NCBI GenBank assembly: GCA_963801355.1
Contig: CAWDEM010000004.1
Location: 1,408,001-1,472,000, forward strand
Direction: 5' to 3'
Source: Ignavibacteriota bacterium
GTDB taxonomy: Bacteria; Bacteroidota; Ignavibacteria; UBA10030; UBA6906
Length of the DNA: 64,000 nt
In this document: positions 23,410 through 24,974 of the stretch, piece by piece
Numbering within the stretch: the stretch's first letter is position 1
Layout: every line of letters starts with the position of its first letter
The notes under the pieces: model-generated
What the model saw: only the letters and a program-made list of their open reading frames with translations
The model's database searches: none
What the model was told of the DNA's origin: nothing
Translations under genes and position numbers: made by a program

Positions 23410-23483
23410 GCTGGCGTAGCTCAGTTGGTTAGAGCACCAGATTGTGGATCTGGGGGTCGATGGTTCGAGTCCATCCGCCAGTA
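23410..23483 (+). tRNA. tRNA-His (GUG), non-canonical acceptor end (no encoded G-1, G1:U72, A73; CCA not encoded)
   Basis: Cloverleaf GCTGGCG-TA-GCTC-AGTTGGTTA-GAGC-A-CCAGA-TTGTGGA-TCTGG-GGGTC-GATGG-TTCGAGT-CCATC-CGCCAGT-A. Confidence 0.96.
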
Positions 23484-23519
23484 CTCCTCCCTCCCATGTC
23501 ATACTTGTAATGATTCCCA

Positions 23520-24974
23520 ATGACGACTGAACAACGAATAGTTGAGCCCCGATTGCTCCGGGGCTTCCGTGACTACCTTCCGGCCCAGATGAATGCCCGG
23601 CAGAAAATCATTGCCACCATCCGGCAGGTCTATGAACGGTATGGATTCCTCCCTCTCGACACTCCGGCGCAGGAATACCGGGTCACGCTCATGGGCTACG
23701 GGGAAGAGAATACCAAGCAGATCTTCACTTTCAAAAATCCGGAGGAAGAAGATGTCGCCCTCCGGTTCGATCTGACAGTGCCGCTGGCCCGTGTCGTCGC
23801 GCAGTACCCCGATCTTCCGCTGCCGTTCCGGCGATACCAGGTCGCCCCGGTGTGGCGGGCCGATAAGCCCGACCCGGGCAGGTTCCGCGAATTCCTCCAG
23901 TTTGACCTGGATTCGGTGGGTGTCACCTCCAACGCGGCAGACGTGGAGATCCTCTGCGGAATGTACGACACCCTCCGCGCCCTGGGCATCGAAAATTTCC
24001 GCGTGAGATTCAGCGACCGGAAAGTCCTCAACAGCCTTCTGGACTATGCCGGAATTCCCCGCGACATGGCACATGCCGTATTCCGTGTGCTGGACAAACT
24101 GGAAAAGATCGGGCTGGAGAACATCGCTGGAGAGCTGACCGCCGGCCGGATCGATGTCTCGGGGGACAAGATTCCGGGGCTGGGCCTTGCTGCCGGGTCC
24201 GCCGATCGCATCAAGGAATTTCTCGCGCTTCCTCAGGGAAACCGGAAGGATGTGCTGGCCGGCATGGCTGCATTGTTCACCGCCGTGCCCTCTGCGGCAG
24301 AGGCCGTGGCGGAGCTGGAATTCATCTGTTCCGCGCTTGATGTCCTGGACATCCCCGATGACCGCGTCGCGCTGGATCTCAGCATTGCGCGTGGACTCGA
24401 CTATTACACCGGACCGGTTTTTGAAGCGATTCTTACGGATGCGCCGGAATTTGGATCGGTCTTCGGCGGAGGTCGCTATGATGGGCTTGTGGAACGCTTC
24501 CTCGGACGGAAGATTCCGGCCGTCGGCGCTTCGATCGGCGTGGACCGCCTGTTCGCCGCGATGCTAAAGCTCGGCCTCGTGCAGATGGTGTCTTCCACCG
24601 CACAGGTCCTGGTGACGGTGATGGAACCGGCCCGGATGAACGACTACATGAAACTGACACGGACACTGCGGGCCGGGGGAATTAACACCGAGCTCTACCT
24701 CGGCGATGAAACCACCCTTGGCAAACAGCTGCAGTATGCCAATCGCCAGAAGATCCCTGTCGCCATCATTATAGGGAGCGATGAGTTTGCCAATAATGAG
24801 GTCACGGTGAAGGATCTTATCCTCGGGGCGACGGTGCAGGACCGGAAGAAAACGGCGAAAGGGAAGGAGCGTGACGTATGGCTCGCCCTCTCCCGCAAGG
24901 CGCAGGTGAGGGTTCCTGCTCCGGATGTCATCGCCTGTGTGCGTGAAACCCTTTCACGTCCCCAACCAGCCTGA
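23520..24974 (+). CDS. hisS: Histidine--tRNA ligase
   Basis: RGFRDYLP, LRFDLTVPLAR, GRFREFLQ, HisA motif ARGLDYYTG, HisB motif GGGRYDGL, motif 3 SIGVDRL, C-terminal anticodon-binding domain. Confidence 0.97.
   Translation: MTTEQRIVEPRLLRGFRDYLPAQMNARQKIIATIRQVYERYGFLPLDTPAQEYRVTLMGYGEENTKQIFTFKNPEEEDVALRFDLTVPLARVVAQYPDLPLPFRRYQVAPVWRADKPDPGRFREFLQFDLDSVGVTSNAADVEILCGMYDTLRALGIENFRVRFSDRKVLNSLLDYAGIPRDMAHAVFRVLDKLEKIGLENIAGELTAGRIDVSGDKIPGLGLAAGSADRIKEFLALPQGNRKDVLAGMAALFTAVPSAAEAVAELEFICSALDVLDIPDDRVALDLSIARGLDYYTGPVFEAILTDAPEFGSVFGGGRYDGLVERFLGRKIPAVGASIGVDRLFAAMLKLGLVQMVSSTAQVLVTVMEPARMNDYMKLTRTLRAGGINTELYLGDETTLGKQLQYANRQKIPVAIIIGSDEFANNEVTVKDLILGATVQDRKKTAKGKERDVWLALSRKAQVRVPAPDVIACVRETLSRPQPA

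Follow-up and report, generated by a model that had tools for sequence, protein, structure and literature searches.

Analysis was done of a histidine tRNA (tRNA-His) gene and the histidyl-tRNA synthetase (HisRS) gene hisS which follows it in the genome of an Ignavibacteriota bacterium (assembly GCA_963801355.1, contig CAWDEM010000004.1, positions 1,408,001 to 1,472,000 of the forward strand). This whole stretch of 64,000 nucleotides (nt) is called the window, and coordinates are given within it. An extra guanosine at position -1 (G-1) of tRNA-His is near-universal and is among the most conserved of tRNA identity marks. The tRNA-His gene of the window encodes no G-1 and its synthetase lacks the glutamine of the motif-2 loop; tRNAs of this kind are named delta-G-1 type and enzymes of this kind Gln-less in the following. 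The features of the pair are listed below.

23410..23483, + strand: tRNA-His(GUG) gene, delta-G-1 type (Rfam tRNA model, 72.2 bits)
23484..23519, + strand: spacer of 36 nt between tRNA-His and hisS, read directly and counted from A73 (35 nt from the ARAGORN end)
23520..24974, + strand: hisS, HisRS of 484 amino acids (aa), Gln-less (delta-G-1) type (Pfam, NCBIfam)
23853..23894, + strand: motif-2 loop WRADKPDPGRFREF, residues 112-125 (alignment with E. coli K-12 HisS)
24144..24188, + strand: insertion-domain hairpin GRIDVSGDKIPGLGL, residues 209-223 (alignment)
24831..24902, + strand: insert of 24 residues, 438-461, within the anticodon-binding domain (alignment)

The tRNA-His gene and its synthetase

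The tRNA-His(gtg) was placed by ARAGORN at 23410-23484 and is the sole tRNA of the window. Its acceptor stem was read directly as GCUGGCG/CGCCAGU, which gives a G1:U72 wobble pair, C2:G71 and the discriminator base A73; the base at -1 is T (position 23409), and CCA is not encoded, CTCC following A73. The D-loop is of 9 nt with U20a (AGUUGGUUA) and G37 is present. The alphaproteobacterial group of Yuan 2011 (PMC3064791) is described by the absence of G-1, by A73, G1-U72, a 9-nt D-loop with U20a and G37, and by a conserved C-G pair at position 71, printed there as 'C3-G71', and all these sequence marks are present in the tRNA-His of the window. The 9-nt D-loop occurs also in the canonical tRNAs of the sister families and is hence not discriminating within the order. 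Over 16 tRNA-His genes of both kinds the cloverleaf was 99.1% paired and the pair 1:72 was G:U in the 10 genes of the delta-G-1 type and G:C in the other 6.

The hisS product matches PF13393 (tRNA-synt_His, 173.5 bits), PF03129 (HGTP_anticodon, 48.7 bits) and the NCBIfam hisS model TIGR00442 (376.6 bits, cut-off 286.75). Its domains and fold are those of a class IIa HisRS, and histidylation is expected of it as the sole HisRS of the genome. In the alignment with E. coli K-12 HisS (RefSeq record), residues 105-130 pair with 105-130 and the motif-2 loop reads WRADKPDPGRFREF against FRHERPQKGRYRQF in E. coli, that is R116K, Q118D and K119P. The loop is identical in the 21 sequences having that segment from the window's family (f1) and a second family of the same order (f6). 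The named alphaproteobacterial enzymes have [WFY]RNEKPGPGR[FY]R[QE]F, so that Asp at the position of E. coli Gln118 is a variant residue where the alphas have Gly. According to PMC3937112 the ancestral Gln contacts G-1:C73, and its replacement by Gly marks the alphaproteobacterial HisRS clade.

The hairpin, GRxDxSGDxIxGLGL, is common to all Gln-less enzymes and is lacking from E. coli-type and Gln-type enzymes in the alignments; G209, D212, G215 and G220 are invariant among 17 Gln-less enzymes. The insert 438-461 sits between the strands VTVKDL and QVRVP and has the same distribution, being found also in the three named alphaproteobacterial enzymes aligned, and the E. coli and Gln-type enzymes end in segments that align with the QVRVP strand and the final helix. 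In Caulobacter HisRS an insert of such kind was named as the likely anticodon reader (Yuan 2011, PMC3064791). A preliminary description of this locus, made from the letters alone, had reported a tRNA-His with a divergent HisRS 36 bp downstream, a motif-2 loop differing from that of E. coli and the insertion GRIDVSGDKIPGLGL, and these were all found as described. The stretch KDLILG...W...AQVRV which it read as a C-terminal extension is present at residues 431-466, but it proved to be an internal insert, since the strand and helix downstream of it align.

The AlphaFold model of the enzyme has a predicted local distance difference test score (pLDDT) of 90 and a predicted TM-score (pTM) of 0.86. 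In the model the insert forms helices 433-445 and 450-461, with pLDDT of 60-69 across residues 441-460, and the hairpin forms the short strands 209-211 and 217-219. All top Foldseek matches of the model are HisRS, with TM-scores up to 0.81, and the closest solved structures are the human cytosolic, Nostoc and Elizabethkingia HisRS at 31-32% identity.

With the canonical system of E. coli and T. thermophilus (4RDX) the window pair shares a class IIa HisRS, the domain order, the GUG anticodon, the catalytic arginines R113, R121 and R123 and the GGGRYD motif. It differs in the tRNA, which is without G-1 and has A73 for C73 and U72 for C72, and in the enzyme, which has the three loop changes and the two inserts; the E. 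coli enzyme matches it weakly, at 101 bits split in two stretches. Within the order of the window, the sister families have this canonical G-1:C73 system. The Gln-type HisRS of Elizabethkingia (6NHI) and Nostoc (3NET) and the human cytosolic enzyme are closest among solved structures (246 and 229 bits, TM-scores 0.76-0.81) and share the WRAD...GRFREF loop frame with the window enzyme, but they keep the loop Gln (6NHI: WRADRPQKGRFREF) and are without either insert, and Gln-type enzymes pair with G-1:C73 tRNAs in the three Planctomycetota and Bacteroidota genomes read.

The Caulobacter or RRCH-clade pair has in common with the window pair the absence of an encoded G-1, A73, G1:U72, C2:G71, the 9-nt D-loop, G37, the Gln-less loop, the hairpin, the anticodon-domain insert, the HisRS clade and the absence of Thg1, the guanylyltransferase which adds G-1 in eukaryotes. 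It differs in that the window enzyme is 39-44% identical to the alphas and not nested among them, has Asp118 instead of Gly, and belongs to a host which is not an alphaproteobacterium. Caulobacter HisRS charges fully without G-1 and loses activity 5-fold when G-1 is added; the loss is 91-fold for U72C, 91- to 1000-fold for anticodon changes and only 3-fold for A73C, and E. coli tRNA is not charged (PMC3064791). A G-1-independent HisRS without Thg1 is described in Trypanosoma brucei and Acanthamoeba castellanii (PMC9976931, PMC4338351 and PMC3561963). These protist systems likewise combine a tRNA-His without G-1, no Thg1 and a non-canonical HisRS, but they belong to eukaryotic lineages, and the enzymes of T. 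cruzi and T. brucei match the window HisRS more weakly (143-150 bits).

No description of a delta-G-1 pair in bacteria outside Alphaproteobacteria was found in the full-text literature, in a search which did not cover the founding papers and supplements. In its passage on the bacterial system a 2023 review (PMC9976931) names only alpha-Proteobacteria, PMC5389517 adds that alphaproteobacterial phages also carry it, and PMC3937112 considers a single bacterial origin of the trait likely. The mechanism is of an already known kind; the novelty lies in the host range, in the linkage as a block and in Asp as a loop variant.

Occurrence, co-variation and phylogeny

The host genome consists of 8 contigs and 4.8 Mb, is 100% complete with 0.14% contamination, and carries the window on a contig of 1.66 Mb. 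Among its 47 tRNA genes (ARAGORN) the window copy is the single tRNA-His. PF13393 has two matches in the genome, the window hisS and a 345-aa protein lying directly upstream of HisG, which passes the HisZ model TIGR00443 (281.3 bits, cut-off 271.65); no second HisRS or second tRNA-His was found across the whole genome by the PF13393 search and ARAGORN. As one tRNA-His and one HisRS in a complete genome make a housekeeping pair and leave no spare cassette, the window tRNA-His and hisS are the cell's housekeeping histidine-charging system and not an accessory cassette. Thg1 (PF04446) was not found in this genome, the best match (E 0.7) being below the cut-off, and a Thg1-family match was absent from three of the four other genomes of the Gln-less type which were checked.

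The distribution was surveyed in samples of one genome per species, which are not exhaustive; since related genomes are non-independent, the counts describe the sample and are not statistics. Among 40 relatives the enzyme was found at 63-94% identity in most f1 genomes and in both f6 genomes, and 14 genomes of seven other families of the order gave frames of 420-499 aa with weak two-piece matches (about 23-37% identity). When 201 genomes of the order were sampled, the enzyme was present in 43/49 of f1, 2/2 of f6 and 0/149 of the seven other families, whose motif-2 loop FRQERPQAGRLRQF, read in four genomes, is E. coli-type. Of the six f1 genomes that lack a match, five were searched with the Pfam model, and no HisRS of any type was found in them: four have only a HisZ-sized PF13393 match and one (G125) has none. 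In one of the four (G024) tRNA-His gave no match as well. These genomes look like assembly gaps and not like carriers of a canonical enzyme.

Across the phylum (401 genomes), enzymes covering the insert were found only in f1 (6/7), in f6 (1/1) and in two other families of the phylum, f17 (2/2, at 52-53% identity to the window HisRS) and f16 (one genome). The other 25 matches in the phylum have 36-45% identity and end near residue 436, and the two which were read have Gln-containing loops. Among the matches listed, the best (54-56% identity) are titled Thermoanaerobaculia, Vicinamibacteria, Bryobacterales and one 'Planctomycetaceae' metagenome-assembled genome (MAG); next in the same list are a Bacteroidetes MAG (48%), Zixibacteria (47%), Nitrospiraceae (46%) and Phycisphaerae/Planctomycetota (43-44%), and then many Rhodobacterales, Hyphomicrobiales, Hyphomonadales and Parvularculales (39-44%). 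Close homologues of the window HisRS are titled Bacteroidota or Sphingobacteriales bacterium by their sources. The host is outside the RRCH clade of Alphaproteobacteria, which is the published range of the type, and its enzyme is outside the alpha subclade.

The enzyme type and the tRNA end vary together. The tRNA-His was read in 41 genomes with a Gln-less enzyme from about seven phyla, namely 20 of f1/f6, 2 of f17, 1 of f16, 5 labelled Acidobacteriota, 3 Planctomycetota, 5 Alphaproteobacteria and five singles (a Bacteroidetes MAG, an unlabelled MAG, Nitrospiraceae, Zixibacteria and the 'Planctomycetaceae' MAG). U72 and A73 are present in 41/41, G1 in 40 with U1 in the remaining one, and G at -1 in only one. 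Nine genomes with a Gln-containing enzyme were also read, five of them from the sister families (including two of the four whose loop was read), two from Planctomycetes, one from Bacteroidota and one Lutibacter MAG; C72 and C73 are present in 9/9 and an encoded G-1 in 8/9, the exception being the Lutibacter MAG. A Vicinamibacteria MAG (G580) gave no tRNA-His match at E 1e-20 and is outside this count.

Two individual tRNAs were recorded separately. In the Lutibacter MAG (Flavobacteriales) the tRNA-His lies just downstream of a Gln-type hisS (L078:4404-4480) and has G1:C72, C73 and T at -1, and the genome holds a Thg1-family gene (69 bits, above the cut-off); judged from its genes, this looks like post-transcriptional addition of G-1 opposite C73 in a bacterium. 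In the genome of locus L064, which carries the 'Planctomycetaceae' label, the tRNA-His (L180:652-727) has U1 opposite U72, a U:U mismatch, together with A73.

For the phylogeny, two maximum-likelihood trees of 68 and 52 rows were made under LG+C20+F+G4 by posterior mean site frequencies (PMSF), with support by the Shimodaira-Hasegawa-like approximate likelihood ratio test (SH-aLRT); the E. coli-type enzymes of the sister families served as the root of both. All Gln-less enzymes form one clade (SH-aLRT 97 with 68 rows and 99 with 52 rows) and every Gln-type enzyme is outside it. Within the clade, f1 and f6 form one clade (99), and a further clade (98-99) unites the named Alphaproteobacteria and is nested among enzymes of Planctomycetota, Ca. 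Uabimicrobium and Ca. Lernaella, whereas f17 groups with a metagenomic protein apart from f1 and f6, and the f16 enzyme has a long branch near the alpha subclade. The approximately unbiased (AU) test rejects the placing of f1 and f6 with the Bacteroidota Gln-type enzymes (log-likelihood difference 153.8, p-AU 9e-67) and with the alphas alone (log-likelihood difference 187.8, p 3.7e-5); by the latter result the window enzyme is not directly derived from Alphaproteobacteria. The alphaproteobacterial likeness which the preliminary description had proposed thus finds its basis in the shared loop, hairpin, insert and clade, and the grouping with ordinary HisRS of the Fibrobacteres-Chlorobi-Bacteroidetes (FCB) group, which it had named as the refuting case, failed in the AU test, the sister families being E. 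coli-type.

Linkage of the block and explanations of its origin

Two further features of the block were located around the pair.

23339..23367, + strand: promoter-like site TTGCAA-17-TATCAT (consensus scan for sigma-70-type sites only, 9/12; weak)
25000..26520, + strand: hutH, histidine ammonia-lyase (TIGR01225, 670.5 bits, cut-off 539)

Both genes of the pair were located in 20 f1/f6 genomes, and in 12 of these (among them the two of f6 and, from the window's genus, three of its four other genomes) the tRNA-His lies less than 400 nt upstream of hisS on the same strand. In the remaining genomes the two genes are divergent and 230 nt apart (1/20), the tRNA is 1.3-4.4 kb upstream (3/20), or it is far away or on another contig (4/20); at five further f1 loci, mostly of one genus, no tRNA was found within 1.5 kb of hisS. 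In a wider scan, again with one genome per species and with the best 80 loci used, the tRNA-His lies just upstream of hisS at 6/14 non-alpha Gln-less loci outside the phylum and beside it at 0/57 alpha-type loci, so that the block of tRNA-His, hisS and hutH is a further difference of the window from the alphaproteobacterial pair. The arrangement is not by chance, because the sole tRNA-His among 47 tRNA genes adjoins the sole HisRS and the adjacency recurs in other lineages. The preliminary description had regarded enzyme and tRNA as linked into one unit and as a self-contained cassette; the unit agrees with these counts and with the tRNA likeness given below, and the cassette holds good for the tight linkage but not for an extra copy of the system. 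The promoter-like site is about 43 nt upstream of the tRNA and no terminator-like hairpin was found in a scan of the spacer, which is weakly suggestive of co-transcription of tRNA-His and hisS. At the locus of a Thermoanaerobaculia MAG (L069:2552-2878) two tandem tRNA-His without G-1 lie upstream of hisS, with a compensated anticodon-stem change between them.

The hutH gene begins about 25 nt after hisS, its start being read as 25000 (the first ATG of the frame is at 24925). It is downstream of hisS in 27/28 f1/f6 loci and at five Acidobacteriota-type loci, and it is found at 0/4 canonical hisS loci of the sister families and at 1/57 alpha-type loci, there upstream. Of five Acidobacteriota-type tRNAs, four have 84-88% identity to the tRNA-His of the window and one has 74%; the canonical tRNAs found in its order reach 69-73% and those of Alphaproteobacteria 72-77%. 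Linkage, hutH synteny and tRNA likeness point to transfer of tRNA-His together with hisS, and by synteny alone hutH has probably travelled with the pair. The G+C content of the block is 59-61% against 57% for the genome and the composition around it is not unusual, as expected for an old acquisition. No mobile-element genes were found among the neighbouring open reading frames (ORFs) checked, and the flanking ORFs checked are metabolic (a 2-hydroxyacid dehydrogenase, hutH and an aldo-keto reductase).

We consider it highly probable that this is a housekeeping pair of the delta-G-1 type which was acquired by horizontal transfer of a linked block and replaced a canonical pair. RNase P would cut the precursor at G1 as in other tRNAs, leaving a 7-bp acceptor stem with a G1:U72 end and A73; the base at -1 is T or C and never G in the 19 f1/f6 genomes where it is readable, and with this variation and no Thg1 a normal cut at G1 and a G-1-independent enzyme are the simplest reading. 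The synthetase would have lost the motif-2-loop residues which hold G-1:C73 in E. coli (Arg116 to Lys and Gln118 to Asp). By analogy with Caulobacter it would read U72 and A73 with its altered loop and need no G-1, and it would probably read the GUG anticodon with the help of the 24-residue insert, although members of the type may not all depend on the anticodon to the same degree. The pair would have replaced the canonical G-1:C73 pair in an ancestor of f1 and f6, in an Ignavibacteria-like order, after arriving by horizontal transfer of the block of tRNA-His, hisS and hutH; its nearest enzymes lie outside Alphaproteobacteria, those of the Acidobacteriota type being the most similar. An incoming linked pair can coexist with the resident one and then displace it, because there is no cross-charging between the systems of Caulobacter and E. 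coli (PMC3064791), and the window pair may by the same analogy be orthogonal to a canonical one.

Several observations weigh against this explanation or limit it. The backbone within the Gln-less clade is not resolved, f1 and f6 stand beside the Acidobacteriota clade with support 88 in one tree and without resolution in the other, and both are quick trees; because the root within the Gln-less clade was not inferred, the trees do not give the donor and the direction of transfer. The tRNA likeness of 84-88% is soft evidence for co-transfer, because short tRNAs can converge under the constraint of the same enzyme. Phylum labels are titles of MAG records and some of them look misassigned: L064, labelled Planctomycetaceae, sits within the Acidobacteriota HisRS clade, which makes its label doubtful, and L099, titled Luminiphilus sp. 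(Gammaproteobacteria), has an alpha-type loop and nests among Rhodobacterales enzymes, its contig being probably misbinned or else its gene recently transferred. With Asp in the loop where the alphas have Gly, recognition of the acceptor end may differ in detail. One alphaproteobacterial HisRS uses G1:U72 and A73 and not the GUG anticodon, as found by Mukai 2020 (PMC7590224), so that anticodon reading appears not to be a fixed property of the type. In the precursor, A73 has a possible pairing partner in the T at -1. A Planctomycetota MAG with a Gln-less enzyme and a tRNA-His with A73 and no G-1 (G576, loci L097/L169) has a Thg1-family match of 90 bits in a 506-aa frame; this protein may be a tRNA-repair Thg1-like protein (TLP) instead of an adder of G-1.

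This last genome would fit a eukaryote-like system, in which a guanylyltransferase adds G-1 opposite A73 after transcription and the enzyme still needs it. A73 without an encoded G-1 is the eukaryotic pattern too, human cytosolic HisRS is among the closest solved folds, and the Lutibacter MAG shows a Thg1-family gene together with a tRNA-His that has C73 and no encoded G-1. Such a system is nevertheless quite improbable for the window: no Thg1 homologue is present in its genome or in three of the four others checked, G1:U72 together with a loop lacking Gln characterises the G-1-independent type (PMC3064791), and the enzyme shares a clade with the alphaproteobacterial type whose independence of G-1 is experimental. 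Retention of U-1 by RNase P, which would pair with A73 in an 8-bp stem and stand in the place of G-1, is held to be equally improbable. Among 28 tRNA-His genes of the Gln-less type, the window included, the base at -1 is T in 22, which could pair as U with A73, but it is C in 5 and G in 1, and an identity element would be conserved more strictly than this. For ordinary tRNAs, moreover, U at -1 is what RNase P commonly prefers. An extra nucleotide at -1 also cut the charging by the Caulobacter enzyme 5-fold (PMC3064791, Table 1).

Evolution in place, by which a native FCB pair drifted convergently to A73 and a Gln-less loop without any transfer, could draw on the related long Gln-type HisRS of some Bacteroidota as a possible source and on a block G+C near that of the genome. 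We give it little credence, since the seven other families of the order have canonical tRNAs and an E. coli-type enzyme of only about 24-27% identity to that of the window, the AU test rejects a clade with the Bacteroidota Gln-type enzymes, and Acidobacteriota-type loci have the two inserts and the neighbouring hutH as well. The least probable of all, and hardly credible, is an accessory or contaminating cassette, either a second orthogonal pair on a mobile element or a misbinned contig. The tight linkage is cassette-like and the same arrangement occurs in unrelated phyla, but the genome has no other HisRS or tRNA-His, the same enzyme is in 43/49 genomes of the family and the flanking ORFs checked are metabolic, while a contig of 1.66 Mb in an assembly of 8 contigs with 0.14% contamination argues against misbinning.

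Wider meaning and further observations

As a tentative extension, whose chances we would put a little short of even, the delta-G-1 rule is carried by a mobile block of tRNA-His and hisS (here with hutH) which has replaced the canonical system repeatedly, across six or seven phyla at the least, the Alphaproteobacteria being recipients and not the source. If so, the phyla concerned would be the Ignavibacteria-like Bacteroidota, Acidobacteriota, Planctomycetota, Nitrospirota, Zixibacteria and others, with at least three separate lineages within one class of Ignavibacteria-like Bacteroidota, where the acquisitions of f1 with f6, of f17 and of f16 look separate. The swap of identity would need no deleterious intermediate, because the two systems do not cross-react, and this would be a natural and repeatable route to replace a tRNA identity rule. 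Apart from this extension, the pair is now seen as the housekeeping system of an FCB-group family, and enzyme and tRNA type agree perfectly in the genomes read from several phyla. This weakens the delta-G-1 trait as a phylogenetic marker, reopens the origin of the alphaproteobacterial enzyme as a question, and shows in the linked block of tRNA and synthetase a concrete way for an identity rule to cross phyla. It also widens the choice of natural G-1-independent candidates for genetic-code engineering.

Some minor observations were also made on the neighbouring genes and in the relatives. The f1/f6 loci (the window, L004-L026 and L148-L152) carry two lineages of HutH, one 60-95% and the other 41-45% identical to the window HutH, the latter being no closer to it than the Acidobacteriota-type HutH (40-50%). 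Urocanase is about 800 kb from the window hutH, although hutH stays attached to hisS. In two relatives, one of them in the window's genus, hisS is read in three overlapping frames (G004:C3:777333-778786 and G011:C104:1728-2941), which are frameshifts or assembly errors in the sole HisRS gene. Just upstream of the tRNA in the window, a 384-aa ORF (22170-23324, + strand) has a weak match to Acetyltransf_1 (GNAT) over residues 43-119 (22.6 bits, cut-off 20.7), in which no single stretch passes alone, and it belongs to no NCBIfam family.

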